A DNA stretch of 64,000 bases from Candidatus Bathyarchaeia archaeon. GTDB lineage: Archaea; Thermoproteota; Bathyarchaeia; Bathyarchaeales; Bathycorpusculaceae. Each line of letters opens with the position of its first letter. Position 1 is the stretch's first letter. Under the pieces are notes generated by a model that ran no database searches, was not told the origin of the DNA, and was given only the letters and a program-made list of their open reading frames with translations. Where the stretch lies: the NCBI GenBank assembly GCA_049516875.1, contig JBEKSS010000001.1, positions 256,001-320,000 of the forward strand, given 5' to 3'. The translations under genes and the position numbers were made by a program. Positions 17,955-63,147 of the stretch are shown one piece after another.

Positions 17955-18479
17955 ATGACTAAACGCGGATTGTATGTTGGAAGATTTCAGCCTTTTCATC
18001 TGGGTCACCTCAGCGCGGTAAAGGCTGTTTTGGAGGACGTTGATGAACTCGTGATTGCCGTTGGTAGCGCACAGTACAGCCACACTACAGCCAATCCCTT
18101 CACTGCAGGTGAGAGGTTGACGATGGTTCGTTTGGCATTGGAAGAGGCGCGTCTGGATAGTAGGCGAGTTTGGGTCGTGCCCGTGCCTGATGTGCACTTG
18201 CACATGCTTTGGGTTTCCGCTCTGGAGGGATACACTCCTAAGTTTGAAATTGTGTATTCCAATGAGCCTTTAACGCGAAGGCTTTTCACGGAAGCTGGGT
18301 ACAAGGTGAAGGCGATTCAGTTTTTCGAAAGGAAGGTCTTCTCTTCGACCGACATCAGGGCGAAGATGGTTGAGGGTGAGAGCTGGAAGAATCTTGTTCC
18401 AAAGAGTGTGGCCGCTTTCATAGCAGAGATAGACGGGGTCAACAGGCTCAGCGATTTGACGAAGAGTGACAAGGCTTAG
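17955..18479 (+). CDS. nadM: Nicotinamide-nucleotide adenylyltransferase
   Basis: GRFQPFHLGH, GSAQ, NPFTAGER. Confidence 0.93.
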   Translation: MTKRGLYVGRFQPFHLGHLSAVKAVLEDVDELVIAVGSAQYSHTTANPFTAGERLTMVRLALEEARLDSRRVWVVPVPDVHLHMLWVSALEGYTPKFEIVYSNEPLTRRLFTEAGYKVKAIQFFERKVFSSTDIRAKMVEGESWKNLVPKSVAAFIAEIDGVNRLSDLTKSDKA

Positions 18480-18558
18480 CGCGCATGTGGGTAAGCAACG
18501 AGATCAGCAACGTCGGATAGAAGGCAGATAGAGGGCTTGCACTTTTTGATTCCAGACG

Positions 18559-19356
18559 TTACGACCGATAAAGCACGACCTCGTCTCCGGCTTCTACGTT
18601 AAAGATGTTACGGGCATTCCCATGATTTACGGAGATTTCGAGGAAGTTGTGGCTTCCGATAATGGCTAGTGGCTGTTGCTTCTCAAGGTCACCATAAGCT
18701 TTGCACAACTTCAACGTTACCTTCTCATTTCTGACCCTAACGGTCACCGAATTTTTCGCTTTCATCGCCTCAAGCTCTCTTGCTCCGAAATTTGTTATTA
18801 TGTTTCCGAAATCGTCCGTGTGAATGACTTGGCCTTCCAGTGAATCTTTTTTTCTGACAATTTTGGCGAATTCTGGCGTTGCCATCTGATGAATCTCCGG
18901 TCCCAGTTCAGCGGGACATATGCCATTTGCCACGTGAGCTGCTGTCGGCGCGAAGATGTCTCTTCCATGAAAGGTGTTGGAAACCTTTGGCAACATGAGT
19001 TCTGGATTGGTTATCCTGTAAACGTGCGTCTCCCCGCCAATGTTCTTCACAGCCAAGGCCAATACGCCGTTGTCAGGCCCAACAAAGCAGCCTTTCTTCG
19101 TCTGTACGATTATGGGCTGTCTCTTTGTTCCAACACCAGGATCCACAACTGCCACGTGAACAGTGCTCTTGGGAAAATATGGAGAGGCTGCGGCTAGGAC
19201 ATAGGCGCCCATCCTCACGTTAAACTTCTCTACATGATGGGTTATGTCAACAATCGTTGCGTTTGGGCTTATGCCCAGAACTACTGCCTTCATCTCCGCA
19301 ACGTAAGGGTCTCTTAATCCAAAATCGGTTGTCAGAGTGATTAGTGGGCAACGCAT
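18559..19356 (-). CDS. SAM hydroxide adenosyltransferase / chlorinase-fluorinase family (DUF62)
   Basis: TTDFG, VVDPGVG, GPDNG, TFHGRDIF, DDFGN. Confidence 0.9.
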   Translation of the reverse strand: MRCPLITLTTDFGLRDPYVAEMKAVVLGISPNATIVDITHHVEKFNVRMGAYVLAAASPYFPKSTVHVAVVDPGVGTKRQPIIVQTKKGCFVGPDNGVLALAVKNIGGETHVYRITNPELMLPKVSNTFHGRDIFAPTAAHVANGICPAELGPEIHQMATPEFAKIVRKKDSLEGQVIHTDDFGNIITNFGARELEAMKAKNSVTVRVRNEKVTLKLCKAYGDLEKQQPLAIIGSHNFLEISVNHGNARNIFNVEAGDEVVLYRS

Positions 19357-19423
19357 GTTGCTTTATTTATAAATGACACAGGATAATTAGATTTCTACAC
19401 TTCACACAAACCGATGGTCCAAG

Positions 19424-20143: not shown

Positions 20144-20271
20144 ATGTTGCACATAGTCTACTGGTAACCGTGCACGCGGATTAGACGAACATGCTGATGA
20201 GAGAAGATGCAAAGAGCGAAGTTAGCAATGACCGAAAGTGATATTAGCCATCTTATCCGAATCTTGGAAGC

Positions 20272-20460: not shown

Positions 20461-21109
20461 TCTTTACAAACGTCAAGACCGCATCGAGAACGAACAACAA
20501 GGTAAAGAGCGCGCTACTAGTCATGTCTTCGATAGACATCTTGAATGACTGAGGCATACGCATGGGCAAAGAAGAATGTGACCCATGATTCTCTTGCCCT
20601 GAAGTCTTCAGAGCGAGGAAGGGCTGATGAATTGTGAACATCTCTTTTTTAGCGCATCCATTATCGAAAAGTATCATTCAAGAAACTGAGCTTCACCAAT
20701 AAGTAGGTAACTTTTTCCTAACGCCATAGCCACACTAGCATTCCATGGATTCTCTTCTACAGGGCGTCTAACAAATCTCTTTGGCGTTAAAGGCAGGAAT
20801 TTGCCCACAATTGTTTCCTCAAGAACTTTTTCCGAAGGACAACAACACAAAATCGCTAATGCCTTGTTGGCGTTGCATGAGTAACACTCATGGTCTCCTG
20901 GACCACCCACAGGAGCGCGCGCTAATCTAGAAGCAGCAAACGGATTGCATCTGATGCGTTGAGGGAACTAACGAGCGGTGCTGTCAAGAAAAGGTTGAAA
21001 TGATCGTCGTCCTGACACTTTGAAGGGTACATATAGAACTCAGCCGCCGGCATGACTTGTACAACACATATAATTGCTGACAGTAGCCCCGGACGGGTTG
21101 CATGAGTGA

Positions 21110-21526: not shown

Positions 21527-21589
21527 GGTTTCTCAGTCTCCATATGTAAAGAACTCTTTCACATTATTTGGCTATTGTTGTTCAAAATG

Positions 21590-21607
21590 TTTGTACAAGT
21601 GTACAAA
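21590..21607. promoter_or_regulatory. Palindromic operator candidate TTTGTACA-AG-TGTACAAA
   Basis: Perfect 8-bp inverted repeat in the divergent intergenic region. Confidence 0.5.
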
Positions 21608-23875: not shown

Positions 23876-23894
23876 GTTATTCCTTCCTCTGGTT

Positions 23895-33519: not shown

Positions 33520-33598
33520 GATGAAATCCTCCGTTAAAACCCCAAACCTGGGAGTTCAATACTACTTGGGCATTCCATATAAACCTTAACGTCGCGGA

Positions 33599-44050: not shown

Positions 44051-44404
44051 ACAATTCTACCTCTAGCAGTTAGCCTGAATCAGAAAACTAGAAACTTGAC
44101 ACTTGCAATAAAAAAGTTTCGCCTCAGCGCGCGCGATGACAGATAGGGTCCTACATAGAAATAGTATTGAAGAAAGAAGGCCAATTTCTAGGCGATGGAG
44201 TGCAAGCCTTCCGCTGTGTTAACTTATCACATTGAACTCCACAGAGAAAAGAAAGCGTACACTGCCAAATCGCTAAGGATAGCAATCCTAAAATTGCCCC
44301 ATCCTCTTTAATGTATAAAATTGGCTTTAAGGAGAAGGAAAAATCTAAGATGTCCTTATCCTAACCCGGAATCTACAGAGGTCTCAAGACGGAGTTTGAA
44401 CCTA

Positions 44405-45598: not shown

Positions 45599-45988
45599 AG
45601 AAAGAATGGTTTGTATTTGGTTGATATTTTTTGCAGCGCGCGCAACAACTTTTCACGGGTTAGCGCACGCTCTCAGTAAGGGCTATCTGTTGTCGCACTA
45701 CGTCTAGTCTGTAGTGATTAGCGGATCAGAAATGTATTTGACTCCAGAAACGCAAAGGCGAAAATGAATGGAGAAGCTACATTGAAACTTGTGATTAAAG
45801 TAGCTGTTACCACTAGTGCGACAGCGCCTTATGCATCCCTGAGAAGAAGCGCGCGATTATTATGAATCTATGGCTAGACTGGACAAGATGACAATTCGCC
45901 GAAGAGCTTCTGTGGCGTATGAATTAATTAGCGCGCGTCAACCTTAAATACTTAATGTTCAGATGTGTAGGCTGTGAGTGAAGGGAAA

Positions 45989-47035: not shown

Positions 47036-47536
47036 AACCCATAGTTCCGCTATTTCTTAGAAAATGTAAAGGGTTTGGCTTTAGCCGCCAATTCGCCTTA
47101 GCGCGCGCTGCCCAGAAGCGTGGATCGATCGACATGCAGCAAGACGTTCGATTGAGAATATTTCCCGTGAAGTACATCACCCCTCTCACTTTGCCATCGA
47201 GGCGGGATATCTGGAAAAATAAATCGAGGTTGCCCAATGCTTAACTATGACGTACGGTCTTCCTAAGGATAGACCGCCCGCGGCTCCGGCAAATGAAATG
47301 GGGGAACAATCGCCTCCTATTAGGGTTGTTACCCTCACTGAGACAGCCAAGTTTGCTACAATCTGTTCTCCAGTTTCTACCTTTTCTGTTGTTATAGAGC
47401 CATTTCAAACGACTTTTTGAATCCTTCTAGATATCTTGCCCATCTTCCTTTGAACCTCTAGGTACCCAATGGCATGAATAAGGTTTGCACGTTTCAAAAG
47501 TGCCTTCCAGAAAAGAAGGAGGGAGAACGTCGTGTT

Positions 47537-48598: not shown

Positions 48599-48823
48599 TT
48601 TCATCACCTTAGAAAGCATTAGTGTGTATGGTGAAGAATGTGTATAAAAAGATTGTGATTAGTGGTTCTGTGTAGTCTTCGTCGGATTTGAGCTCATGTG
48701 AAAATTCGTCGGGTGATTTCTAATAGGCGCTTTAATGCGCGCGCATGGTAAGCGTGTTCTGAATTAAACAGCCATGTAGAATCGTTTACACCCAGATATT
48801 CGTTGCGCATTCGTGGGCTGTTT

Positions 48824-49795: not shown

Positions 49796-49801
49796 GTTGT
49801 G

Positions 49802-50782
49802 TCACCTTTTATTGTAAAGCCAGCATGCAACCAAATGTGAATCAGAATCTCCAACAAATTGTGGTTTCTCTCTTTTGCAGACATCTGATGCATGATCGCA
49901 TCGTGGATGAAATCTGCATCCGGATGGTGGATCTAAATAATCAGGAACATGCCCTCTAATACCCTTTGAGAATCCACCTCCGGTAAGTTTCGGGCAAGAC
50001 TCTAGAAGCCCTCGAGTGTATGGATGTAAAGGATTTGAAAACAATTCCCCAGTTGCCGCGGTTTCGATCATATCTCCTGCGTACATAACACAGCCTCTAT
50101 CAGTTATGCCTCTTATAGTGCCGAGTGCATGCGAAATCAAAATCACTGAAAGATTTCTTTCACTCACAAGTTTGCTCATCAGATGTAACACTTGATCTTG
50201 AATTGTTACATCTAGATTTGTAGTAGGTTCATCAGCAATTAAGAGATCTCTTGCAGTGCCCAAGGACATTGCGATACAGATTCTTTGCTTCATTCCTCCG
50301 CTTAGCTGAAAAGGATAGCTATTAAGAACTCTCTCGGGATCTTGCAGGGCCACATCCTTGAGCAACTCTAGGGACTTTGCCTTTAAATCTTCATTCCTTA
50401 TATTCTTGCCTTCGATTATGCCTGAGTACTTGATTACGTTCGCGAGTTGATCTCCAGCAGTGAACACCGGGTTGAGAGCGGCTGTGGGATCTTGAAATAT
50501 CATAGTTATGTTTTTCCTCCTTATTTCGGTCAGTTCTTTTTCATTAATTTTGAGTATATCCTTTCCTTTGAAGGATATTTCGCCGCTTTCGACGATTGCG
50601 TTACTGGCAAGAACTCTGAGGATTGCTCTCATGGCAGTGGTTTTGCCAGATCCAGATTCCCCGATTATTCCAACTTTTTCCCCTTCATGAACCGTGAAGG
50701 ATAGTCCGTTCAGGACTTTCGATGATCCTTTATAGATCTTGTATCCTACTCTGAGATTGTTAACATCTAATAGCCGTTTCAT
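49802..50782 (-). CDS. Oligopeptide/dipeptide ABC transporter ATPase (DppD/OppD)
   Basis: GESGSGKT, LSGGMKQR, ADEPTT, GCRFHPRC. Confidence 0.92.
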   Translation of the reverse strand: MKRLLDVNNLRVGYKIYKGSSKVLNGLSFTVHEGEKVGIIGESGSGKTTAMRAILRVLASNAIVESGEISFKGKDILKINEKELTEIRRKNITMIFQDPTAALNPVFTAGDQLANVIKYSGIIEGKNIRNEDLKAKSLELLKDVALQDPERVLNSYPFQLSGGMKQRICIAMSLGTARDLLIADEPTTNLDVTIQDQVLHLMSKLVSERNLSVILISHALGTIRGITDRGCVMYAGDMIETAATGELFSNPLHPYTRGLLESCPKLTGGGFSKGIRGHVPDYLDPPSGCRFHPRCDHASDVCKREKPQFVGDSDSHLVACWLYNKR

Positions 50783-50786
50783 CGCA

Positions 50787-51686
50787 TTACCTGACCTCTT
50801 CCATGAAAATGTCTCGAATGCCATCTCCGAGCAGGTTGAATCCCAGAATTATCATGATGATTGCAATCGCTGGGAAAATCGTCAACCACCAGATTTCGGG
50901 CAAAAATCTTCCACCCGTGGCAACCATAGTGCCTAGGTCAGGCGTCGGGGGCTGAGCTCCTAATCCCACAAAACTCAATGCTGATCCGAGCAATATGACC
51001 CAACCGACATCCAGAGTGACCTTGGTCAGAATTGGACCCAGAGTATTAGGAAAGATTTCTCTGAATATAATGTAAAATGGACTAGCTCCGCTTATTCCCG
51101 CAGCTTGAACGAAATACTCGTTTCTCAGCGATGACGAAATACTATACGTCAGTCGAGCGTACCAAGGCCACCATATTAGACAGATGGCCAGCATTGCGTT
51201 GAGAAGACTCGGGCTCAGAACTGCTGTGACCGCCAATGCCAACACCAATGCAGGAACAGCAATGAATATGTCCGCTACTCTCATCACCAGGCTGTCAACC
51301 CATGATCCTCGATAATATCCAGCGGTTAGTCCTAGGGCTACCCCCGGCAAAACTGACACCCCCAAGACTACGGCAGCCATAAGCAGAGAATACTGAAACC
51401 CAAAGACGGTTCTGGTGAATACGTCTCTGCCTACATCATCCGTGCCAAACAGATGTGCAAGGCTTGGAGGTTGAAGGGCCTCTTTAAAATTCGTGTTGAA
51501 ACCTGTATCTTGTGGGTAAGGCGTTATGTAAGGAGCAGACAAAGCTAAGAATAGTGCAACTCCAACGATTACTAATCCCACTATTGACAATGGGTTCCTA
51601 GTGAATCTGAACCATCTCCTTCTGGCAAGATCTATGTCAATGAACTCCCCGATTTTCTTATAGATATTGCCAGCTAATCTAATCAC
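50787..51686 (-). CDS. Peptide ABC transporter permease (DppC/OppC)
   Basis: PPS..HLFGTDDVGRD, LSFVGLG, GFNLLGDG. Confidence 0.92.
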   Translation of the reverse strand: MIRLAGNIYKKIGEFIDIDLARRRWFRFTRNPLSIVGLVIVGVALFLALSAPYITPYPQDTGFNTNFKEALQPPSLAHLFGTDDVGRDVFTRTVFGFQYSLLMAAVVLGVSVLPGVALGLTAGYYRGSWVDSLVMRVADIFIAVPALVLALAVTAVLSPSLLNAMLAICLIWWPWYARLTYSISSSLRNEYFVQAAGISGASPFYIIFREIFPNTLGPILTKVTLDVGWVILLGSALSFVGLGAQPPTPDLGTMVATGGRFLPEIWWLTIFPAIAIIMIILGFNLLGDGIRDIFMEEVR

Positions 51687-52704
51687 CTCTCTCCATCAAC
51701 CTAATCCTAGGATCCACATAGCCAACTATGATGTCGGCGAGTATGTTTGCTATGGTAAATATTATCCCTACTACCAAGACCACCGCAACTATACCATTAA
51801 GGTCTTTAGCTAACATAACTGTGATGCCATACTTGGAAAAACCTGGATAGTTGAATATCCTCTCAACCAAAAATGCATTTGCCAATATCGAAGCGATATC
51901 CATCCCCATCACTGTGATTGCAGGTATGATAGATGGTTTAAGCAGATACCTAAATCTTATCAGATTGGTAGGCATGCCCTTTGAAACCGCCATCGTTATA
52001 TAATCCTTGCTTTGGTTCTCAACCATACCAGATCGTATGATTCTTGCATCCTGCAGCATTCCACCTGCACACACAGCAAAAGCCGGCAGGACCAAGTGCC
52101 ACCCAAGGTTTCCTAATGCATCGAGTCTCCCTGTTATTAGTGAATCTATCGAGATAAAGCCAGTTATTCTCTGAGGAGACAAAACATCTGTGCTGAGTCT
52201 CCCAAAAGTTGGGAATATTGGTATATACCAAGTAAAAACCAGCTGAAGTACTATTGCCAACACAAATGAGGGAATTGCTATCCCTACGTAAGAGATTATC
52301 CTCAGAATGGTGTCTGGCCATTTGTTTGAATAGGATCCTCCTATAATACCAAGTGTAAAAGCCCCAACCACCTCAAAGATTGCCGCTAGAAATACCAATT
52401 CTAGAGAGGCAGGGAGGAATTCAAGCACATCGGCAGATACATTGCGCTGAGAATATAGTGAGTACCCCAAATCTCCATGAAATAGATTAAATAGCCAGCT
52501 GAAGTACTGCTCATATAGCGGTTTGTTGAGCCCTAGCTGCTGCCTGATTTGCTCAACAACCCAGCCTGGCGCTCTAGGTCCAGCCGCCATTCTGGCCGGA
52601 TCGCCTGGTAAGACTCTCGCAATAATGAATACAAGAATTGACAGGCCGAATAACGTGAGAATGGCGTAGGCGGTCCTCCTCAAAACAAAAGTGGAAGTTT
52701 TCAT
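51679..52704 (-). CDS. Peptide ABC transporter permease (DppB/OppB)
   Basis: PGDP, GLNKPL..QY, GDLG.S, VDPRIR. Confidence 0.92.
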   Translation of the reverse strand: MKTSTFVLRRTAYAILTLFGLSILVFIIARVLPGDPARMAAGPRAPGWVVEQIRQQLGLNKPLYEQYFSWLFNLFHGDLGYSLYSQRNVSADVLEFLPASLELVFLAAIFEVVGAFTLGIIGGSYSNKWPDTILRIISYVGIAIPSFVLAIVLQLVFTWYIPIFPTFGRLSTDVLSPQRITGFISIDSLITGRLDALGNLGWHLVLPAFAVCAGGMLQDARIIRSGMVENQSKDYITMAVSKGMPTNLIRFRYLLKPSIIPAITVMGMDIASILANAFLVERIFNYPGFSKYGITVMLAKDLNGIVAVVLVVGIIFTIANILADIIVGYVDPRIRLMERGD

Positions 52705-52846
52705 CGCACCTTCCCTATGCACAAACGATTGCTGACGGATATATAAGTATTACCAACAAGCATCCCAGTTGGTTTCGTCACTGTGCAGTCTCAGCGCTTT
52801 TCAAATGTGAAGTAGCCCCGATGTGAAAACAAAGAAAAAAAGATTG

Positions 52847-54505
52847 TTAATGAGGAAGAATGCCGATATTCCTCACATCAAAGTCGTAGCCCATTCCAGG
52901 AATATGAACCCCGTGTGCAATTGGCCAGTCCACGTAAGTTTGGTATGCGTGTTTGGTATTCATTTCGAATGTGAATATCGTCGGACACAAACCCACAATA
53001 TAACTTTGAATGGCAGCATACTTGGCAAACCTTTCCGTTCTGTTCAGGGTTGAAACAGCATCCTTCATCTGGGCATCAAGCGTGGCATTTTTGAGCCACT
53101 CGTTCTGTTCCCACGTTCCAGCAGAGTTCGATGAATATTTTGATTCAAGAATCGAGCCCGCTTCAGAATAAGACGCAGCCACAGATACGGATTCTATGTG
53201 AGGAGCTGTGTCCACGCTTGCCGTCTCTTGGACAATCGAATTCCACGGCGTCGCAGTCAGTTGTGCTTTCAGTCCTATCTCTTGCAAGCCTTGAGCGAAG
53301 GACAAAGCAATTTTCTCCTCAAACGTTGCATCAGAAGGCCAGTGTATGGTGATTGCATAATTATCAGGGTTGTTGATAATATCCGGATAGTACTTCGACA
53401 GTTTAAGCTCTTCTCGTGCCGCACTGTAATTTAGCGTGTATTGGAAGACATTAGTCCAGCCTGGCAATGTGCTCGGCACGGGACCATCTGACACTGGCCC
53501 ACGATTTTTCATTATTGTGCTTGCCACTGTTTGATAATCGAAAGCATATGCTAAGGCCTTTCTCACGTGGATGTCGTCAAGAGGCGGTTTCTGGGTGTTC
53601 ATCATATAGTAGAGCGGACTATCGCCAGGCACCGTAGTAATGTTGATGCCGGAATTCGTAGCCATGCTAGCGTACCACTCCTCATCCAACCAGCCGAATG
53701 ATATATCCAATTGCCCCTGCAACATTTGGGTCTTCTCCAATGTAGGGTCATTAGCGGTGTAGTATACCACTATATCAGGTGAATTGCTCTTCGTAGTTCC
53801 CCAATAAGCAGAGTACTTTTCGAACGTATAATCTCCCCCTAGCACAATGTTTTTGACCTCTAGGGGACCAGAGCCGGCATCATGGGTCAGCAACCATTCC
53901 CTTCCATAGTCTCCAAAATCGCCATACGAGCCAGGGAATTTTAAATGTGCCATGACTTCCTCATGGTCAACTATGAATAATCTGACAAGTGCGATTAAGA
54001 AAGGCCCAAACGGTTTTGTGAGGTTCACCTGTACTGTATAATTAGCAATTGCGATTGCGCTGTCGTAGTAAGGAGAGAATATGTAGCCATAGCCTTCGCC
54101 AATTGTGACCAACCTCCTCATGCTGAAGGCTACATCTTCAGCTGTCAGTTCTCGCCCAGTATGGAATTTTATGCCTTGTTTAATATTGAAGGTCCAACTC
54201 AAACCATCAGGCGAGGAAGTCCAGTTCTCCGCCACCCAAGGCTTTACGTCCCCTGTCGTAGTGGGGTATACAAGCGGATCGTACAGGTTGATTTCTGCTG
54301 CAGAGCTTGAGAAGTCCGTGCCAACACCAGGGTCGCAAATCGTGTAACCCCCCCAACCAATCCTCAGGTAGGTAGAAGTACCTGTCTGTGAAGACGGTCG
54401 AAATGCTACGTAGTATCCAGCCGCTACCGCTGCTACAACCACGATGACCGCAATTATGATTGCTTGCATTTTTGTTATAGCTGACTTCGATGAAATTGTT
54501 CTCAA
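52847..54505 (-). CDS. Peptide ABC transporter substrate-binding protein (family 5)
   Basis: Archaeal class-III-like signal (SAITKMQAII) plus TM; LTAEDVAFS, GSGP, PPLDDIHVRKA. Confidence 0.92.
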   Translation of the reverse strand: MRTISSKSAITKMQAIIIAVIVVVAAVAAGYYVAFRPSSQTGTSTYLRIGWGGYTICDPGVGTDFSSSAAEINLYDPLVYPTTTGDVKPWVAENWTSSPDGLSWTFNIKQGIKFHTGRELTAEDVAFSMRRLVTIGEGYGYIFSPYYDSAIAIANYTVQVNLTKPFGPFLIALVRLFIVDHEEVMAHLKFPGSYGDFGDYGREWLLTHDAGSGPLEVKNIVLGGDYTFEKYSAYWGTTKSNSPDIVVYYTANDPTLEKTQMLQGQLDISFGWLDEEWYASMATNSGINITTVPGDSPLYYMMNTQKPPLDDIHVRKALAYAFDYQTVASTIMKNRGPVSDGPVPSTLPGWTNVFQYTLNYSAAREELKLSKYYPDIINNPDNYAITIHWPSDATFEEKIALSFAQGLQEIGLKAQLTATPWNSIVQETASVDTAPHIESVSVAASYSEAGSILESKYSSNSAGTWEQNEWLKNATLDAQMKDAVSTLNRTERFAKYAAIQSYIVGLCPTIFTFEMNTKHAYQTYVDWPIAHGVHIPGMGYDFDVRNIGILPH

Positions 54506-54652
54506 TATATCCCTCTTTTTATATCAATTCTAGCTTATACTACGAAAGAGCTGAATATTTATATTTTTCGGGTCGAACGGGCGCGGCACTAGTTCGAAGA
54601 ACCCGGAAAAGTTAATATGACTGATTCTCTTATCAAATAAAAAGGATTTCCG

Positions 54653-55693
54653 ATGATTGAAAAACAGAAGATAGTGAAAGGGGTCGTGAACATTCTGGAG
54701 GTGAACATGGGACTGCGAAGTGCTGAAAAAGTACTCATAGTCACAGATGTTCCGACTGCTGATGAATGGGCGAGGTATGACTTTGAAAAACTCACAGATT
54801 TTGTTGAAAGATCCATTTTGGCAAAAGCTGTGAGCGAGGTAGCGCGCGAAAATTTCCCAGATTGTTCAGTAGAATTCTACGCCTATCCCTCCATTGGAAG
54901 ACATGGAGCCGAGCTTGGGAAGGAAATTGAAGGAAGAATGAAAGCTGCGTCAGTCGTACTGGCAATAACCACCTACTCGCTGAGTCATACTGAGACGCGC
55001 GAAAACGCAACCAAGGCGGGGGTCAGAATAGCAAGCATGCCGATGTTCTTGGCAGACATGCTGTATCCAGGAGGTCCTATGACACCCGACTATGACAAAA
55101 TAGAGATAGAGACTGAAAAAATCGCTGCTGCGGTAAGGGAATCTGAAGAAGCAATGGTGACGTCTCCGGGAGGAACAAATATGAAGTTTGGCGTTAAAGG
55201 CAGAAAAGTCATTCCGGAAGCAGGAAACTTCCGCGAAAAAGGCGCCTGGGGCAATTTGCCGGCAGGCGAAGCTGCCTGTGCCCCAATTGAAGGGACAGGA
55301 GAAGGCAAACTCGTTGTTGAAGTAGATTGGTTCTCCAATTTGAAGGAAGACATGACTTTTGTCTTCAAGAATGGACTAGTGGTTGAAATAATCGGCGGTG
55401 GAAAAGTCGGGGACGAGTTCAGAACCTTATTGGCGCCTAAGAAGAATGAAGAACCCTACGTTTCAAGAAGGAATCTTGCAGAACTAGGGATTGGAACTAA
55501 TCCGAACGCGAAAAGACCTGAAAATACTCTTGAGGCTGAAAAAATCAAGGGAACAGTTCACTTGGCAATAGGTAACAGCTTCCATATAGGAGGGAAAGTT
55601 CCTGCTGACTTGCATCAAGACTTCATAATTCCTCGGCCAACATTGCTACTAGATGGAAAAGCCGTAATCAAAGATGGAAAGCTACTCATATAG
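54653..55693 (+). CDS. Peptidase M29 (AmpT/AmpS-like) aminopeptidase
   Basis: NLPAGE, AELGIGTN, EAEK..GTVHLAIG, LHQD canonical ligand set. Confidence 0.88.
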   Translation: MIEKQKIVKGVVNILEVNMGLRSAEKVLIVTDVPTADEWARYDFEKLTDFVERSILAKAVSEVARENFPDCSVEFYAYPSIGRHGAELGKEIEGRMKAASVVLAITTYSLSHTETRENATKAGVRIASMPMFLADMLYPGGPMTPDYDKIEIETEKIAAAVRESEEAMVTSPGGTNMKFGVKGRKVIPEAGNFREKGAWGNLPAGEAACAPIEGTGEGKLVVEVDWFSNLKEDMTFVFKNGLVVEIIGGGKVGDEFRTLLAPKKNEEPYVSRRNLAELGIGTNPNAKRPENTLEAEKIKGTVHLAIGNSFHIGGKVPADLHQDFIIPRPTLLLDGKAVIKDGKLLI

Positions 55694-55744
55694 ACCAGAC
55701 AAGAGATTCTCAGCACCCCACATCAGGATTAGTTGGCTTCCTCT

Positions 55745-55774
55745 TACTAACCATGTAACTACTAACCATGTAAC
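55745..55774 (+). repeat. Perfect 15-bp tandem duplication TACTAACCATGTAAC x2
   Basis: Seen directly at 55745-55759 and 55760-55774. Confidence 0.9.
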
Positions 55775-55842
55775 CCTGCAAGCCTGATATTTTATCAGCA
55801 TTTGGAAGCTTTGCTAGCGGTTTTCGGTTCAATTTCCTTTTC

Positions 55843-56515
55843 TCATTCTAAGATTATTCGCGCATCGACTGCCTTTGTTCCTCTCATTTAAGCCAGTATC
55901 GGGTTCAAGTCAATTCCGCCTATTCGTGAGTGTTTGATGATGAGTCTTGAGACGCTGATCATGATTTTGATTATCGCCGCGATGCGCGCGCAGCCAGAGC
56001 ATTTCTGTATCCCTTTTACAGGGGTATGCTTTTACCTCGCTAATCATGTCAATGGCCTCATGCACAGCTATAGAAGCGATTCTGCGTGTAACACCCTTAA
56101 GGCTCTACGAATATTCCTCCGAGGCCAAACACCAATATTGGACCATACTGAGAGTCTTTATTGGCACCTACGATTACCTAAGTTGATGGAGGTGCCATCT
56201 CTTCGACTAAAAAGCCCCAATTCTTGCATCCCCTTTTTTTCTTTTGACGTTTTCCAGAATCTTTCTGTAGGCATTCTCGACTTCTTTTGTGCTCTTGAGG
56301 TTCACTATTACACCACCGACTTCCGATTTGTGCACTATGTCTAGAGAGGTGATCTTCAAAACCACGGCATAACCATGTTGTCAGCGAAGCTCATCGCTTC
56401 AGCCCCGTTCTTGGCGAGTTCGAACCTGATGACTAGAATTCCATACCCCAAACAAACAGTCTTGGCCTCAGTTTCCAAAAGAGATTTTTGATTTTCTAAG
56501 CCGACCTTTAGCGGC
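55843..56515 (-). pseudogene. acdB: ADP-forming acetyl-CoA synthetase beta subunit pseudogene
   Basis: Manual minus-strand translation across frameshifts and stops: LLETEAK...VVLKITS.DIVHKSEVGGV...GPILVFGLGGIFVE...KGYRN...IDLNPI...AVDARIILE*. Confidence 0.85.
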
Positions 56516-56869
56516 GATTCCGATCCTCTGCTTAAGGATGAAAACTCCTACCAAATTCAGAGATACGGTATATCTCAGCTTAAATCCACTTTGGAAAAGT
56601 CAATCTGCTCTGCTTTCCATTGTTGCCACTGGATTCAAACGAGCTAAAAAACTGTGGATGGGGCGCCAGTGCATACTGAATTCAACTTCTTTTGGAAAAA
56701 GCACGCTGCGGTAGGTCGATAAAAGTCTAAAACGCTCATTTCGTATTCATCACCAACATAAAAGAGGTTCATTCATGAATATAACAGTAACAGCAAGGAT
56801 GCAATCACAAAGGATATTATATCGGTCGAGGCGCGCGCGCAGCTCAAGGCTACATTTCCCTATGGCCGC

Positions 56870-57895
56870 CTAGGGTTTGAGCACAACTCTAATGGGATTC
56901 CCGATCTGCTTCTCCAAGATATCGAGTCCCTGGTTGACCTCTTCCAAAGTAACTGTTTGTGATATCACCCTCTTGACATCCAATCGCCCATGCATAATCA
57001 TGTCTATTAGCGCAGGATATTCCGAGTGTGCGACAAATCCCTGTACTCCGATTATCTCCATCTCTTTTGCAGTCATATCTCTCATTGGAAGATTCGCCTT
57101 CTGTGTTCCAACGCCTGCCAAAACAACTCTTCCCCCTCTTCTAACGCTTGCAATGGCTTGCTCAAAGGTTGCTGGCAGTCCGACGAATTCCAATGCGATG
57201 TCTGCACCAGTTCCATTTGTTATCTGTAGTATTCTCTGAACAGGATCCTCCACTTCTGAATTAACTGTTTCTTCAGCACCGAATTCCATAGCTACCTGTA
57301 GCTTCTTATCCAGAATATCTACAGCTACAACTCGAGCCCCGCTTAGCCTACAGAGCTGAACGGCATTCATTCCCAAACCCCCTACTCCAAAAATGGCCAC
57401 CGTGCTGCCAAACGTTACTCTTGCGAGCTTAATAGCATGAAACGGAGTAGCTAAGGCATCGGTTAGTATCGCTGCTTCTCCATAGGACAACGAATTCGGT
57501 ATCTTGTACAGGTTCTTAGAAGGCACTGCGACATATTCTGCATATCCACCATCAATTTGTATGCCCAGCTCAACTTTACGTTGGCAGATATTGTCTTTTC
57601 CTGAAGCACAGTAATAGCATTCTCCACAAGAAATTATACCTGAAACTAGAACTCTGTCCCCTTTTCCAAATTCTTCGATTTCGGTTCCGATATCTGCGAT
57701 TCGCCCTGAAATCTCATGTCCAAGAATCAATGGAGTCTTCGGGACTCTTATCGCGCCTTTGATGATGTGAAGATCTGAGTGGCATATACCGCATGCCTTC
57801 ACTTTGACTAGAGCCCATTTTTCCCTTATCTTGGGCAAAGGAACTTCTTCTATCCGTAGAGGTTTGTTCGGTTCATAAAAACGTGCAGCTTTCAC
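56870..57895 (-). CDS. Zn-dependent alcohol dehydrogenase (MDR family)
   Basis: GICHSD, GHE, CGECYYC..C, GVGGLG. Confidence 0.92.
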   Translation of the reverse strand: MKAARFYEPNKPLRIEEVPLPKIREKWALVKVKACGICHSDLHIIKGAIRVPKTPLILGHEISGRIADIGTEIEEFGKGDRVLVSGIISCGECYYCASGKDNICQRKVELGIQIDGGYAEYVAVPSKNLYKIPNSLSYGEAAILTDALATPFHAIKLARVTFGSTVAIFGVGGLGMNAVQLCRLSGARVVAVDILDKKLQVAMEFGAEETVNSEVEDPVQRILQITNGTGADIALEFVGLPATFEQAIASVRRGGRVVLAGVGTQKANLPMRDMTAKEMEIIGVQGFVAHSEYPALIDMIMHGRLDVKRVISQTVTLEEVNQGLDILEKQIGNPIRVVLKP

Positions 57896-59023
57896 CTATT
57901 TCTGCTCCCATTTTGGTCTTGGGAAAATCGGTTTCTTTGACGCAATATCCTTAGGCCAAACCGTGACAAATTGGCCTTCCTGAACCTGGACAATTACACA
58001 CCGAGCCATTGAGTTTTGTCCAGTTGCCGGATCAATCTTTACCCTACCAGCGATAGTCATCATATCAGTTCTTGAAAGAGCTTCACGTATTTCTTCGGGT
58101 TTTGTGGAACCTGCCTTTTCGATACCATTCAATAACACTTGAGAAGCTTGAAAGCAAGAACCAGGATGCTCGATTGGATATTCGCCGTATTTTTGGAAGT
58201 ATCTTTCTGTCAATTCTTTTGATCCTGGTGTCATCATGTCATGACACCAAAAGGCTACGCTAGCAAAATATTCGCTATCCTCTCGAGCATTCTTAAGGAA
58301 TTCAGGAATTGCATGCCCTGCTCCCATACCCACAAACGAGCGAAAATTGTAGTTCTGCTCGCGGATCTGACGTGCAATTAATACTGCGTCATCGACATAG
58401 GATGCAGCCACGATAATATCAGGATCTGCATCTTTCATTTGCTGTATTATGGGGCTGAAGTCTCTTATGTCCTGACCATAAGGTGCCTTGAGGACAGTCT
58501 TCAATCTTAGCTGCTTTGCACGTTTTTCAACCTCGGTCACAAGCATTCTACCTATTAGAAGGTCAATGTAAACTATACCTAGTGTTTTCGCTTTGAGTTC
58601 TTGTATAGCGAAGTCTAGTGCCGTCGTACAGTAAATCGTATTGGTGGCGCTAGCCCTGAAAACATAATGAAATCCGCGCTGAGTCAACTCATCTGCTGTT
58701 GCATCACTTACAACAAATGGAATATGGTACTCGTTAGCTACACTCGCTGCGGGTATTGTGAGCGAACTCGCGTAGCAACCTGTTATAATTGGAACCTTCT
58801 CTTTTTTTATGAGTTGCTCACATTCAACAACTGCGTTCTCAGGTTTGTCACTGCAGTCCACGTATTCGTATGATACCTTTGCATTCCCGAGGGACTTTAT
58901 TCCACCATTTTCGTTAACCATCTCAACCGCAATTTCGTGTCCTCTTCTGCACCTTTCAGCGATTTCAGACATGGAACCGCTCAAAGGCAGGACGCAACCG
59001 ACTTTGACTTCCTTTTCTACCAA
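57896..59023 (-). CDS. LivJ/AmiC-type periplasmic-binding-fold protein without signal peptide
   Basis: VKVGCVLPLSG, VNENGGI, G.YASS, YVFR, VWP; no N-terminal TM. Confidence 0.85.
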   Translation of the reverse strand: MVEKEVKVGCVLPLSGSMSEIAERCRRGHEIAVEMVNENGGIKSLGNAKVSYEYVDCSDKPENAVVECEQLIKKEKVPIITGCYASSLTIPAASVANEYHIPFVVSDATADELTQRGFHYVFRASATNTIYCTTALDFAIQELKAKTLGIVYIDLLIGRMLVTEVEKRAKQLRLKTVLKAPYGQDIRDFSPIIQQMKDADPDIIVAASYVDDAVLIARQIREQNYNFRSFVGMGAGHAIPEFLKNAREDSEYFASVAFWCHDMMTPGSKELTERYFQKYGEYPIEHPGSCFQASQVLLNGIEKAGSTKPEEIREALSRTDMMTIAGRVKIDPATGQNSMARCVIVQVQEGQFVTVWPKDIASKKPIFPRPKWEQK

Positions 59024-59164
59024 TCTTGTACACGCTCTGAGCCTACGCCCTGAAGTCTACCTAGTTTGAATAAGCTAAGAAGTCAGTTGCCTATTAAATA
59101 TTACCTAGTTAGTATAAACCGAGTTGCTTCGAAACAGCAGTGAATCGGCTCGCAATCTTGTTTT

Positions 59165-59425
59165 CGGATATCGTCGAATACTCTTTCAACTATGTTCAAG
59201 GCTTTCACAATTCTATCTTTTTAATCCTTAGGCCGTAAACATTTTGACGGTGCTCTCGTTCTTTGTCAGTACAAGCAAGCCCTTTTCTTTCAGTTTTGAG
59301 GCGAACTGGCTCGAAGAAACGCCTAAGCCTTTCAAATCTGCACAGATGATGTTTCTTTGAACGTTTTCGTAAGTCAATGGAAATTCTGTTCATTCTGCTC
59401 AATTTTCGAGTCGAGAGTCGAGCGT
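59165..59425 (-). pseudogene. C-terminal remnant of a low-specificity L-threonine aldolase (LtaE/GLY1-like)
   Basis: Manual translation with frameshifts: AR..RKLSRMNRISIDL/ENVQRNII CADLKGLGVSSSQFASKLKEKGLLVLTKNESTVKMFT...KALNIVERVF. Confidence 0.65.
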
Positions 59426-59448
59426 GCGCACAGCCTTAGCGCGCGCGC

Positions 59449-60234
59449 TTTAGGTCCGGACCTATGAAGTATCCACCGACTGTTTCAGCTACAATTATTA
59501 TCAACTCAGCAAAGAAGGCTCCAACGAAATTTCCCATGCTTCCTAAGACAACTGCAGCAATGGCAGAGAGCATGAATGCTTTTCCGACAGTGGAGGTTAC
59601 ACTATAGTAGGCCATAATGTGTAAACCAGCTATCCCAGTAAGAGCCGACCCAATTCCAAAAGCGATCAGATACATGTTGCGAACATTGATGCCCATTACG
59701 CTGGCCACAACTCTATTCTGGCTGACTGCTCGTAAGGCTTTCCAATCCTCGTTCTCTTAAGGAACAAGTACATTCCCAAAGCAGTGAATATTGAAAACAC
59801 AAAAGAAATCAAATGATGAACGTCGGCGAAAACCGAGGACACCACTATCGTTGATACTTCCGACGGTATGCTCCTAACATCGCCTCCCATTAACATAAGC
59901 ATGAAGTTCACCAAGAACAAGGACAGCCCAAACGTCACGTATATTCTGGCTGCCATAGAAAGTTCTACCACGCGACTGATGAGGAATCTCTCGATGATTA
60001 AGCCGATCAAGAAAAGGCTTAGGGGACACACCACGACAGAAAGATAGGGGCTGAGACCGAGGGCAGAGAACATTATCCACGCAACATACATCGCAATCAT
60101 CAAAAACTCGCCTTGGGCAAAGTTGACTATGGCCATCACTCTCCAGATCAAAGTCAGCCCCATGCTGACGAGCGAGTAAATGCCGCCGATCAGTAATCCG
60201 TTAATGATCAGTGGACAATGATGCTTGGATCCAT
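59449..60234 (-). pseudogene. livH: Branched-chain amino acid ABC permease LivH pseudogene (two frameshifts, 3' truncated)
   Basis: MDPSIIV/LIINGLLIGGIYSLVSMGLTLI..VNFAQGE; split across ORFs 59696-60343 and 59436-59708; ends at GPDLK followed by (GC)5. Confidence 0.85.
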
Positions 60235-60364
60235 TGTTTCTTCCTTTTCTTTCTGGTGCAGATTTTATGAACATACAGCAGAGTGCCGCATATAAGGTCT
60301 GTTGAATTCTTGAACTAGCCAGTTCAGATGCGCTAACAAGCATTTAACGCGGGCTGGGGGTTTG

Positions 60365-61378
60365 CTAGAAACCTAATGCCTTGCTTATCGGAGCCAAGCG
60401 GGGATGGACATATTTTCCTTCCTTTTCAAGATAATCTTCACCAACTAATATCGTTGGATTCTGCATAGTGCCATCTGAATGTGAAGCTGCAACTCCTCCT
60501 TTTCCTTTGTAGTATTCTCTTTGGTAACCTATTCCGACAACCACGCTCCCGAAGACTCTGTCGGCCTCTAAGATCTTGTCAGACAGCTTTGCACCAGGAT
60601 TGAAGCCGTAGCTAAAGTGTGCTATGTTGTACATGCTGTCATCATGCCAACTTGCAAGCCATCTCTCCAGCTTTTTTGCTTCGGCACCACCTGCGATGCT
60701 GACTATTCTGCCTTTTTCAACCTTAAGCTCAATCGGGTTATGCAAGATGCCGATTTCAGGGGGAAATATAGCTCCATCAAGCACGATCGTACCACCTACT
60801 GTCTCCTCTACAGGTGCCCATGCGATTTCGCCTGCTAGACCACCACCCACTTCAGAGCGAATGAAGGGACGATGCGCGTCTAACTTGAAAGCGACGTTAG
60901 TTCCCGCAGATGACGTTATCTTCATGCTATCAACTTTTTTGCTTACTTGGACCAGCTCTTTTCCCAATTCGATCATCTTGGCCCAGTCAACATTTCCTAT
61001 TAACCTGACCATCATGCCCACATCCATACCCCACAGCCCCAAATATCTGACACCATTTTCCATTGCGTTTTTCCATGCCTTCGAAAAGAGCAAATACTTT
61101 CTGGAGAATTCCACCATTACATCCGTATTTGACATTGCCGCCGCCACAGGTTTAGGAACATTCGCTTTTTCTCCAATGTCAGGCGGTGCAGCGTACCAAA
61201 TGACCGCGACTTTGGATCCGAGCAAATGTGCTGCCCTTGCCGCTGCCTCGACTACCATTCTATCAGTTTCCGTATCTGCGCATATCAAGAGATGTTCATC
61301 TGGCTTCAAGCCAAGCAAAGTCTCCTCTTTGACAAGAGTGTACGAAGCCTTTGCGAGCTCGAGATCAAAGAACTTCAA
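60365..61378 (-). CDS. Peptidase M29/NicX-fold metalloenzyme (His-type variant), paralog of 45989-47035
   Basis: ADTETD, GMDVGMMVRL, ITSSAGT, GEIAWAP, IAHFSYGFNPGAKL, SHSDG. Confidence 0.8.
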   Translation of the reverse strand: MKFFDLELAKASYTLVKEETLLGLKPDEHLLICADTETDRMVVEAAARAAHLLGSKVAVIWYAAPPDIGEKANVPKPVAAAMSNTDVMVEFSRKYLLFSKAWKNAMENGVRYLGLWGMDVGMMVRLIGNVDWAKMIELGKELVQVSKKVDSMKITSSAGTNVAFKLDAHRPFIRSEVGGGLAGEIAWAPVEETVGGTIVLDGAIFPPEIGILHNPIELKVEKGRIVSIAGGAEAKKLERWLASWHDDSMYNIAHFSYGFNPGAKLSDKILEADRVFGSVVVGIGYQREYYKGKGGVAASHSDGTMQNPTILVGEDYLEKEGKYVHPRLAPISKALGF

Positions 61379-61789
61379 AGGGTTTCCTCCTTCTGATCTT
61401 CGCGCGCTTTTCCTTTCATTGCAACAACCGGCGCGTTCGTATATAAAACCTATGGTGATCCGTGCCGCGCGCGCTGACGGAATTCTTCAATGGTACTACC
61501 AATGGCCAATGGGGGACAGTTTATCCTTGGAACGTTGCCACAACCACACCGGTCTTTCCAATGCCAATGTATAACCAAAGACCATAACCCACCTTTTCAT
61601 TTTTTGAGGGTTTCATTGAAACATCGCAGCCCGCTTCAAATTCTAAACTGGTTCACTTTGGCTCTTTCTAAGATCTCACTGGCTTGGCCCATGATGAAAA
61701 AGAAAAGAAAGCCAAAGCATCTTCCGCAAGATGTAAATGTTGCCGACCGTAACTATTCAAAACTGTGACGTGGGTTGAGGCTGAGAGCC

Positions 61790-63076
61790 ATGACAAAACC
61801 AAGAATATTCTTAATGCCCATCGGAAAGGTTACTTCAAAAGATATCGAAGATGATGAGAGATCTGCGGTAGAGAATCTAGAATCTCTTGATGCAGACATA
61901 GTTCAAACAGAACCTATATACGATGAGAAAGAGATAACCCGCAGCGTCAGAGATCTGCAGGCCAAGGAAATCGATCTCCTCGTTCTGCTATCGCTCCATG
62001 GAGCCAGTGCTCCTTTATTAGTTTTGGCTGCTGAAAATTCTGGTCTCAGGACTGTGATATGGGCTCTTCCGACTCGATACTCCTTACCGACTTGTGCTAG
62101 CGCGATTGGCGCTCTAATGGAAAAGGACGTTAAGTCCGAGCTTGTCTACGGAGCTGCCTCTGACAAGAAAGTCACACAACGAATTATACAACTAGCGAGA
62201 ATTGGTTACACTATCAACAGACTGAAGAGAGCCCGAATAGGGACTATCGGAGGAGTGTTTGCTCTCCTGACCGCATCCTACTACGACAGAAACATTCTTC
62301 GACACAGGATAGGGCCTGATGTTGTCCGAATTCCTATGTCAGATTACAAGCAAATTGTTTTGGAGACAACGGAAGAAGAGGCTGCCAAAGCGATTGAAAA
62401 TATCCCGAAGGACATTAAAGTAGAAGTCGAAAGCGGACTTCTTATCCAGTCAATGCGCCAACACTTGGCGTTGAAGAAGATTGCGAACGCGCGCGGGCTC
62501 GAGGGGATCTGCCTTGAATGCCATTCTGAGATGATAAAAGAATTCAAAGTTAACCCGTGTCTAGGTTTTATTGATGACTCATACACAATTGGTTGTGAGG
62601 GAGATGTTGTCATTTGTGTGGCAGCATTAATGATCCTATACCTTACAGGCAAACAGTCCCTAATCAGCGACCCCTTTACTATTGATCCTGAAAGTGTGAT
62701 GACTATGCTTCACTGTGCCGGCCCTGCTTCACTCTGCGAAGATTGCGGCGATGTGAGCATAAAAACGGGCCAATCACCATCCCATGTTGGAGAACCAATC
62801 CCCCTAGCTATGTGCAGACCACAACTTCAAGAAGGAAAAGAAGTGACCTTACTAAGATTGTATGGTTCCTATATGGACAAAATGCACTTTGCCTTAGGCA
62901 AGGTAGTATCATGTCTAAATGACACGACTTTGGACCTCAAAATCAAACTTGTCGGAGGCAAAGATACATTTATTCAAAATATCTCCGGCAATCATTACAT
63001 CGTGGCAATGGGGGATATCAGAAACGATCTAAGAGCGCTGTGCAAAGAAATGAGAATTGATGCAATCGAAAGCTAG
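61790..63076 (+). CDS. L-fucose/L-arabinose isomerase-family protein
   Basis: PCL, GCEGD, LHC.G, VTLLRL, GNHY motifs. Confidence 0.75.
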   Translation: MTKPRIFLMPIGKVTSKDIEDDERSAVENLESLDADIVQTEPIYDEKEITRSVRDLQAKEIDLLVLLSLHGASAPLLVLAAENSGLRTVIWALPTRYSLPTCASAIGALMEKDVKSELVYGAASDKKVTQRIIQLARIGYTINRLKRARIGTIGGVFALLTASYYDRNILRHRIGPDVVRIPMSDYKQIVLETTEEEAAKAIENIPKDIKVEVESGLLIQSMRQHLALKKIANARGLEGICLECHSEMIKEFKVNPCLGFIDDSYTIGCEGDVVICVAALMILYLTGKQSLISDPFTIDPESVMTMLHCAGPASLCEDCGDVSIKTGQSPSHVGEPIPLAMCRPQLQEGKEVTLLRLYGSYMDKMHFALGKVVSCLNDTTLDLKIKLVGGKDTFIQNISGNHYIVAMGDIRNDLRALCKEMRIDAIES

Positions 63077-63147
63077 CAGCAAATATAGAGCGCGCTAACT
63101 GGACGAACTGCGGTGACCTGACTCATAGTTTCTATGAAAACGCGAGC

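Follow-up and report, generated by a model that had tools for sequence, protein, structure and literature searches.

What are the short runs of alternating G and C that recur between the genes of a Bathyarchaeia archaeon: a conserved signal, or a trace of something that happened to the DNA? The question was raised by a 64,000-nt stretch of its genome (the window; C1:256001-320000 of the assembly G000), in which a first-pass annotation had noted a recurrent palindrome of four to five GC units. The palindrome had been taken for a genome-wide signal analogous to HIP1 of cyanobacteria, and a repair scar that accumulates where selection is relaxed had been listed among the alternatives. Comparison with related genomes suggests that the runs are probably the scar, or filler, of a lineage-specific process that rejoins broken DNA, and not a conserved signal. 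Thus, the repair-scar alternative was supported by the comparative data, whereas the HIP1 analogy was not.

G000 is a metagenome assembly of 2.43 Mb in 20 contigs (47% G+C, 97% complete, 5.4% estimated contamination). It was compared with four relatives of the same genus (G001-G004) and with more distant genomes, and every genome used was a metagenome assembly. The gene calls on G000 were our own and crude; they comprised 2256 genes that covered 80% of the genome. Coordinates are window positions unless stated. The 8-nt run in the G...C phase is GCGCGCGC, the run in the opposite phase is CGCGCGCG, and the flanked form is AGCGCGCGCT.

Abundance, length and flanks of the alternating GC runs

The window contained 12 overlapping matches of GCGCGCGC at 10 places (5350, 20915, 44127, 45636, 47101, 48737, 55984, 56831, 59439 and 61467, with two matches each at 56831 and 59439). 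When the window was shuffled 100 times with its dinucleotide content kept, the mean was 0.60 and no shuffle reached 12. CGCGCGCG occurred 5 times against 0.48 expected, and the copy at 62488 was among these. The positions given earlier for both 8-mers were all correct. So were the eight shorter copies listed (18479, 20509, 22817, 26447, 45849, 45931, 61401 and 63090), although that list had missed six runs of 6-7 nt, all in called genes (1934, 9217, 12256, 36968, 41782 and 54842).

In the whole of G000, GCGCGCGC was present in 447 copies per strand against 24.6, 24.1 and 30.7 expected from Markov models of orders 1, 2 and 3, respectively, and CGCGCGCG in 223 copies. GCGCGCGC had the highest z among all 8-mers of the genome, and the next in rank were its own flanked forms AGCGCGCG, TAGCGCGC and TTAGCGCG. 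GCGC alone was at expectation (observed/expected 1.02), and the remaining dinucleotide 8-mers showed no comparable enrichment. Other over-represented palindromic 8-mers were GAGTACTC (3.1x, z 13), GATCGATC (3.4x) and CGTTAACG (2.7x), while GATC (0.6x), CTAG and CCGG were under-represented.

Maximal alternating runs of 6, 7, 8, 9, 10 and 11 nt numbered 503, 204, 240, 112, 56 and 5, and three were of at least 12 nt. The distribution has a bump at 8-10 nt and ends abruptly after 10 nt, unlike that of open-ended slippage. A dinucleotide microsatellite produced by slippage was rejected because the lengths stop after 10 nt and other dinucleotide 8-mers are not enriched. Slippage by one GC unit does occur at an existing site. 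The G...C phase was favoured over the opposite phase both at 8 nt (212 vs 28) and at 10 nt (48 vs 8).

The bias of the flanks was limited to A at -1 (59-68%), T at -2 (39-42%) and T at -3 (33%), and the information content outside positions -1 to -3 was at most 0.012 bit. Since the bias ends at position -3, the unit is (T)(T)A-(GC)4-5-T(A)(A) and no part of a larger repeat; a larger repeat around the motif was rejected, as none was found by flank information content. The left and right flanks were statistically independent of each other (odds ratio 1.2).

Formation of new runs at base resolution

New alternating GC runs were found in three settings, namely at the junctions of deletions of 0.3-27.7 kb, in small patches where about 3-8 nt had been replaced by about 5-11 nt, and at synteny breaks. 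In the window, the synteny breaks were exact at 44127 and 59439 and lay within about 30 nt of the runs at 45636 and 56831.

The deletions were resolved between G002 and G004, which are 93-96% identical across about 100 kb and align there in 13 collinear blocks with 12 gaps. Five of the gaps placed 3-8 nt in one genome opposite 90 nt to 27.7 kb in the other, and the five short fillers were GCGC, GC(T), GTACGCCC, TAGCACG and GCG. Four of these gaps are deletions in G002 because outgroups carry the long allele; the fifth was not polarised. The 2545-nt deletion has the junction GCGC in G002, and its long allele was found in G000, G003 and G004. The filler GC(T) of the 27.7-kb deletion completes TTA-GCGCGCGC-TA (long allele in G003 and G004), the filler TAGCACG of a 313-nt deletion completes CACGCGCGCA (long in G004, and in G000, where the flanks lie 415 nt apart), and the filler GCG of a 1076-nt deletion completes GCGCGCG (long in G000 and G004). 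In a sixth gap, about 1.5 kb that is long in G002 and G003 was reduced to 122 nt in G004, which carries two runs there, one of them abutting the conserved flank. Of the 12 gaps, 6 had a pure run of at least 6 nt within 12 nt of a block edge, whereas 10.5% would be expected to (binomial 7e-4).

A 4.2-kb insertion in G002 (G002:C4:92133-96415 vs G004:C1:23269-23965) was flanked by a duplicated stretch of about 20 nt of the ATTAAACTT type, beside a GC run. It looks like an insertion of a different, duplication-making kind.

The patches arose without a large deletion. At G002 107706, AGCGCGCGCAC was present in G002 alone, and an unrelated 7-nt sequence stood in its place in G000, G003 and G004. 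Paralogues that span a site resolved just two cases at the base level in G000, the replacement of CGCAGAC by CGCGCGCGC (C7:96841) and of TCGTTTTC by TCGCGCGCGCT (C2:74365). A 280-nt fragment of a coding tandem repeat in G000 had runs at both sides, which were absent from the intact copy. At locus 33565, G002, G003 and G004 read ACTA-GCGCGCGC-ATTCC, whereas G000 has CTTGGGC and G001 has TCTGGAC. The tree of this locus is (G001,(G000,(G003,(G004,G002)))) with support 100/100. Since the three carriers form one fully supported clade, a single gain in which 7 nt were replaced by 8 nt is indicated. The surrounding spacer (33530-33600) is conserved in all five species of the genus; in it, a hairpin-like AAAACCCCAAATCTGGGGGTT precedes CATATAAAC, an arrangement that resembles a terminator beside a promoter.

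The TA on the left side of the run was ancestral in several of the polarised events. The flank bias thus reflects where the ends were made or kept and not bases that were added. Older sites common to G002 and G004 differed by single substitutions in three cases and by one GC unit in one case, and in the non-coding DNA of G000 the one-transition neighbours of the motif were enriched (observed/expected 2.3 at the inner positions vs 1.8 for transversions). These data suggest that the sites decay once made.

The occurrence of runs at junctions could also be explained if they were primarily fragile or recombinogenic sites, forming Z-DNA or cruciforms, so that junctions are marked because the motif causes the breaks. 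On paper, the alternating purine-pyrimidine tract would qualify as Z-DNA-forming, and purine-pyrimidine repeats are reported to be prone to breakage in other organisms (PMC9276527). Some events did start at a run common to both genomes (the gap at G004 23310, with CACGCGCACG in G002), the 1076-nt gap has a run at its right junction in both alleles, and the motif is clustered, with several copies close together in one spacer. However, runs arose from run-free ancestors at G002 107706, at the 2545-nt deletion, at the (GC)5 of G004 89124, at 33565 and at C7:96841, only 11 of 85 paralogue boundaries had GCGCGC within 40 nt on the intact copy, and fragility leaves the origin of the motif unexplained. 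We consider it unlikely as the primary cause. It is compatible with a scar model as a second step, and the events that began at a run already in place make it possible that the runs are fragile as well.

Another explanation is a cassette-type exchange in which the runs would be the sites of recombination or insertion, either integron-like or as a transposase target; a recombinase would join DNA at GCGCGCGC and leave copies on both sides of inserted segments. It is in line with the presence of runs at both ends of the 280-nt fragment and of an 11.2-kb G000-specific segment of the window, with the many single genes in the 44-64 kb region that are bracketed by runs, and with the patchy distribution in the class, which fits a transferable determinant. 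In the polarised events, however, the run sits in the short, deleted allele, and the long allele is run-free at one or both ends (27.7-kb and 2545-nt deletions). In addition, small patches arose without inserted DNA, the conserved arm is confined to 1-3 flanking bases, and in G000 no Y1 transposase and few multi-copy protein families were found, tyrosine and serine recombinases lying outside that survey. A cassette-type exchange is thus distinctly unlikely.

Homology and synteny around the runs

BLAST searches with 300 nt on each side of 313 spacer sites in G000 showed that paralogous homology crossed the run at 3 sites, whereas 19-27 crossings were obtained in 12 controls shifted within the same spacers. 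In 17 cases, homology stopped no more than 3 nt from the outer edge of the run; the controls averaged 10.3 such cases (range 6-17). At the protein level, 3 sites were spanned vs 18-25 in ten controls, and 14 abutted a truncated homologue vs 4-14.

G000 was also compared with 400 kb of G003, which gave 273 reciprocal-best orthologues with a median protein identity of 81.5%. A run was present in 1 of the 170 G000 spacers whose adjacency is conserved to G003 (0.13 per kb) and in 27 of the 178 spacers that lie at breaks or beside genes without an orthologue (0.65 per kb; Fisher 9e-8). None of the 170 conserved-adjacency spacers had a run in both genomes. Of 25 sites of G003, grouped by hand, five were in conserved coding sequence with a G000 orthologous sequence of the same length, three in conserved spacers, six had flanks that map apart in G000, nine had a homologue of one flank only and two of neither. 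The first-pass annotation had proposed a test of whether synteny breaks at the motif, and its outcome is positive, as at 44127, at 59439 and at several of the G002/G004 gaps.

Placement in the genome and reproducibility of the sites

The non-coding DNA, 20% of G000 by the gene calls, held 366 of 447 copies of GCGCGCGC, which corresponds to 763 vs 41.5 per Mb in coding DNA, an 18-fold difference, while control palindromes had non-coding/coding ratios of 0.45-1.5. Runs of at least 8 nt were present in 259 of the 1888 spacers of G000. Their density was 0.81 per kb in convergent, 0.57 in divergent and 0.62-0.74 in tandem spacers. Since every spacer type carries the motif, a dedicated promoter or terminator role is unlikely. 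The positions tend to fall 70-90 nt upstream of starts and 10-60 nt after stops. In 20-kb bins the variance/mean was 3.6; 27 of 110 bins were empty and others held at least 9. In the 44-64 kb region of the window, 7 of the 12 spacers between called genes had a run of at least 8 nt.

These data bear on the idea of a selected signal (HIP1-like, protein-binding, chromatin or insulator) that is kept by selection or by methylation-linked biased repair. An 8-nt palindrome so strongly over-represented, with a symmetric flank preference, preferred positions relative to starts and stops, and one site unchanged in three species (locus 33565) could be a signal of this kind, and G000 has N4/N6 methyltransferase genes. 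Several results contradict it. No conserved-adjacency spacer shares a run between G000 and G003, the density is similar in all spacer types, the copies are clustered rather than periodic, they decay by point mutation between close species, and the signature is patchy within a single genus. No C5 methyltransferase (PF00145) was found in G000, in the motif-rich G073, G099 and G207, or in G012 and G016. The methylation-driven HIP1 model was rejected for lack of PF00145, and the strong depletion in coding DNA, the clustering and the absence of shared spacers argue against a HIP1-like genome-wide signal. Thus, a selected signal is very unlikely.

An origin of the runs in sequencing, assembly or binning errors is hardly credible. 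Such a doubt could be nourished by the exclusive use of metagenome assemblies, by the estimated contamination of G000 and by its three small contigs of deviant G+C content. However, the contigs of four runs, two of them possible sources (X1 and X3) and two from other studies (X6 and X7), reproduced the window from 44000 to 63900 with 0 differences across the sites, so that independent runs bridge them. The trait is also lineage-specific, since it is found in 5 of 5 genomes of the genus and is near zero in most sister genera, and a run of 8-10 nt is shorter than assembly k-mers. No population polymorphism at the sites was seen in the four runs, all of which hold the same strain. A search of metagenome contigs for closer strains yielded only two loci, of 100% and 85% identity. 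Two contigs of G000, C18 (59% G+C) and C19 (39% G+C), are about 5 kb each and motif-free, and may be binning contaminants.

Distribution in Bathyarchaeia and survey of candidate enzymes

All five species-level genomes of the genus contained 168-646 copies, and the other genera of the family and order mostly 0-14, with the exceptions of G018 (227), G024 (53) and G013 (30). Among 251 Bathyarchaeia genomes, each at least 85% complete, a genome was counted by hand as motif-rich when AGCGCGCGCT had at least 10 copies and at least 5x those of its reverse. The 21 motif-rich genomes fell in five families (f1, 8; f26, 6 of 8; f32, 5 of 5; f29, 1; f36, 1), and the signature was patchy even inside genus g29. 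The comparison across the class proposed in the first-pass annotation thus revealed a trait of scattered occurrence.

Ku/LigD, reverse transcriptase, PolX, Prim-Pol and RAYT do not match this distribution. Ku was found in 7 of the 21 motif-rich and in 64 of the 230 motif-poor genomes; neither Ku nor LigD was found in the motif-rich G003 and G018, and G010 has both, yet only 7 copies. Ku/LigD was therefore rejected as the writer, since its presence does not follow the motif. G000 itself has a complete non-homologous end joining (NHEJ) operon on contig 9 (90883-93943; L057:6883-9943), which encodes a LigD primase-polymerase, Ku and a ligase fused to a 3'-phosphoesterase domain. The presence of Ku in 71 of the 251 genomes indicates that, within the class, this pathway is common, although it passes for rare in archaea.

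A writer similar to a reverse transcriptase or telomerase was rejected because RVT_1 was found in 0 of 31 genomes, and Prim-Pol (PF09250) because it was found only in G004, G006 and G025 of the 31. PolX palm had no convincing match in the genus, and a Y1 transposase/RAYT (PF01797) was not found in G000; both were rejected. An extra PriS paralogue was likewise rejected, as G000 has a single PriS and no other was detectable with PF01896. NucS/EndoMS was uninformative, since all the genomes tested for it (3 motif-rich, 2 motif-poor) have it. High-copy mobile elements were rejected because no family of near-identical proteins in G000 exceeds 5 members. Restriction-site duplication, in which RGCGCY is cut and filled, was rejected because AGCGCT and GGCGCC are undepleted and the ancestral sequences lack GCGC. 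A transposon footprint with TA duplication was rejected because the flanks are independent and the patches lose ancestral bases rather than duplicate them.

A break-rejoining process as the probable source

The junctions suggest the following course of events. A break would be resected by a few bases or by kilobases, and the 3' ends at the break would gain G and C. The ends would then pair via self-complementary GC microhomology, and repeated pairing and extension would lengthen the run until a duplex of 8-10 bp was stable enough for filling and ligation. Such cycles of pairing and extension would account for the palindromic character of the runs, for their restricted lengths and for the mutual independence of the flanks. 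The process would be akin to microhomology-mediated end joining, carried out by an archaeal primase or polymerase. One may speculate that the preference for the G...C phase is a purine-first preference of the adding enzyme. Surviving scars would build up in the parts of the genome that tolerate such lesions (spacers, pseudogenes and variable regions) and would then decay through point mutation and slippage by one GC unit. Breaks seem to recur at runs already in place.

Several observations weigh against the scar interpretation. One of the five tiny fillers, GTACGCCC, contains no clean run, and several block gaps have no run at the edge. Some junctions adjoin or use an older GC-rich stretch, such as the GTGCGC to the left of the 27.7-kb deletion and the shared run of the G004 23310 gap, and the motif could be a preferred site of breakage in addition to, or in place of, a product of rejoining. 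The enrichment of homology ends at the edges of the runs is modest, as 1 of the 12 controls reaches the observed 17, and the depletion of spanning homology may in part be an avoidance of uncalled genes. Spacer length confounds the link with synteny because conserved spacers are short; among spacers of at least 100 nt, a run was present in 1 of 42 with conserved adjacency vs 26 of 113 at breaks or beside orthologue-less genes. On the G003 side the contrast is weak (0.23 vs 0.32-0.37 per kb, with few sites). The 33565 site is perfectly kept in three species, which fits neutrality in a conserved spacer and with which a function remains compatible. The primase-mediated products reported are mostly 1-2-bp indels and not runs of 8-10 nt (PMC12019639). 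Finally, Ku/LigD and the other candidate writers rejected above do not fit.

A wider proposal is more tentative: some Bathyarchaeia may own an activity that writes a self-complementary (GC)4-5 linker between any two ends, its determinant having been gained and lost, and its scars may be preferred sites of later breaks; both would promote deletions, insertions and the swapping of genes in the flexible genome. We regard this as possible, somewhat short of probable. If it is true, it would be a sequence-tagged illegitimate recombination with no described prokaryotic counterpart. If the scar interpretation holds, each GCGCGCGC run would be the record of a past break-and-join, so that deletions, insertions and swaps would be countable and datable from sequence. 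An end-joining chemistry that adds a fixed self-complementary linker would also bear on double-strand break repair in Ku-less archaea and on flexible-genome turnover. For annotation, the runs would serve to flag pseudogene borders and recent rearrangements.

Comparison with known systems

The archaeal primase PriSL is similar in several respects. PriSL of Saccharolobus is reported to anneal strands that share as few as two GC pairs, to act as a terminal transferase that adds untemplated nucleotides, and to join ends (PMC12019639), and microhomology-mediated end joining by PriSL(X) is also described in PMC3333859. Like the process proposed here, it is archaeal and Ku-independent, combines terminal transfer with short G/C microhomology and extension, and leaves small G/C-rich insertions. 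It differs in that neither a defined alternating run of 8-10 nt nor kilobase deletions are reported in the accessible text of PMC12019639. Involvement of a primase in the scars of the G000 lineage is pure conjecture, with which the anatomy of the junctions is compatible.

Ku/LigD NHEJ has in common with the runs that NHEJ leaves small non-templated additions and that a complete operon is present in G000; it differs by the distribution of Ku, which does not follow the motif. In eukaryotes, filler DNA is known from telomerase, which adds telomeric repeats at internal breaks, and from polymerase theta, which makes templated insertions that copy nearby sequence. The resemblance lies in extra nucleotides, sometimes of recognisable sequence, at a rejoined break. 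Telomerase requires a reverse transcriptase and an RNA template, whereas RVT_1 was not found in any of the 31 genomes, and the fillers of polymerase theta have no fixed motif. Integrons, with attC sites of 57-141 nt that are structured and used by the IntI integrase, resemble the present case in that unrelated single genes of variable regions are separated by short palindromes. Here, by contrast, no structure was seen beyond the run (integrases were outside the survey), the polarity is that of deletion, and patches occur without a cassette.

Repetitive extragenic palindromes (REPs) are about 20-40 nt long, form stem-loops and are accompanied by a Y1 transposase. REPs, their bacterial interspersed mosaic elements (BIMEs) and the REP-associated tyrosine transposases (RAYTs; PMC2817692) share with the runs the character of abundant extragenic palindromes; here the unit spans 8-10 nt and lacks conserved flanks, and a search of G000 for a Y1_Tnp gene found none. 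HIP1 (GCGATCGC, cyanobacteria) is likewise a G+C-rich palindrome of 8 nt, more than 10-fold over-represented and lineage-specific. It is conserved within and between reading frames, maintained by selection and periodically spaced (PMC5861425), and is recognised by orphan methyltransferases (PMC4390886, PMC13756078). The GC motif, in contrast, avoids genes, clusters, turns over and marks indel junctions in a genome where no C5 methylase was found. The accessible text of Elhai 2015 (PMC4390886) makes no mention of GCGCGC, CGCGCG or archaea. A literature search, with subscription-only papers outside its reach, yielded no published description of intergenic GCGCGCGC runs, of palindromes or end joining in Bathyarchaeia, or of Z-DNA in archaeal genomes.

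Individual sites in the window

The runs and associated features of the window are listed in Table 1. As first reported, the 8-nt sites are intergenic or in pseudogenes, with the exception of those at 5350 and 62488, which lie in open frames; the site at 55984 is in a gene remnant, that at 59439 in a truncated permease gene, and the rest are in spacers. Where relatives have sites in conserved genes, the sequence at the site is as long as the orthologous one and departs from it through substitutions alone.

Table 1. Alternating GC runs and related features of the window (nt positions)
Feature	Position	Strand	Context
GCGCGCGC	5350..5357		inside open frame 5192-5806, minus strand
GCGCGCGC within AGCGCGCGCT	20915..20922		spacer
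'Empty' ancestral state CTTGGGC	33565..33571		GCGCGCGC at the same place in three sister species
GCGCGCGCG	44127..44135		synteny break upstream of ETF gene (43262-44050, minus strand)
GCGCGCGC	45636..45643		near left end of the 11.2-kb G000-specific segment
11.2-kb G000-specific segment	45644..56830		Opp-type ABC transporter operon; runs at 47101, 48737 and 55984
GCGCGCG	45849..45855		7-nt run; shares spacer with 45636 and with a second 7-nt run at 45931-45937
GCGCGCGC	47101..47108		spacer
GCGCGCGC as ATGCGCGCGCAT	48737..48744		spacer; homology of a multi-copy element stops about 20 nt to the left
GCGCGCGC	55984..55991		interrupts a gene remnant
(GC)5	56831..56840		right end of the 11.2-kb segment, 30 nt from the end of the ADH (alcohol dehydrogenase) gene
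(GC)5	59439..59448		truncation point of a LivH-type permease gene; the run forms the last codons of the frame
Branched-chain amino-acid permease pseudogene, split and truncated	59436..60343	minus	two frames, BPD_transp_2 positions 2-157 and 167-251 of 269
CGCGCGCGC	61466..61474		spacer; 7-nt run also at 61401-61407
CGCGCGCG	62488..62495		inside open frame 61775-63076, plus strand

In G003, a run-free spacer of 75 nt is all that separates the MFS gene (44321-45598) from the ADH gene (56870-57895), whereas in G000 the two lie 11.2 kb from each other. The intervening segment starts 27 nt past the GCGCGCGC at 45636 and finishes at the (GC)5 at 56831. Only versions of its genes that are 65-67% identical were found in G003 and G004, sited elsewhere in the genome. 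Within the segment, blastx at 55984 matched residues 194-241 of the paralogue C6|67 to the left of the run and residues 108-191 to the right; the nucleotide alignment to the paralogue is too diverged to resolve the event.

At 59439, the permease frame of G000 ends in GPDLK-RAR-stop, and the G003 orthologue is 33 residues longer. Nucleotide homology to G003 restarts at 59447, with 5.1 kb in G003 vs about 0.26 kb in G000. The permease gene is both frameshifted and cut, and the adjoining binding-protein gene (57896-59023) looks intact. A permease broken beside an apparently intact binding-protein gene suggests that this transporter operon is decaying. The spacer that contains the run at 61466 is 405 nt in G000 vs 1.7 kb in G003.

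At the 44127 site, the homology of all four genus relatives to G000 stops at 44125-44126, the left edge of the run. Beyond 44126, the relatives resemble one another (judged by eye, unscored), while G000 carries unrelated DNA. Contigs of related organisms in X1 and X7 also match up to 44126 and then diverge. A GCGCGCGC match was present at 7 of 80 ETF loci. In a 2.35-Mb Bathyarchaeota chromosome (L086), positions 203-1017 contain five GCGCGCGC matches, which occupy four sites within 1 kb beside an ETF orthologue of only 79% protein identity. One of the 80 loci, a 64% identical ETF relative (L157), is filed under the bacterial Krumholzibacteriaceae and is possibly a mis-binned archaeal contig or a transfer.

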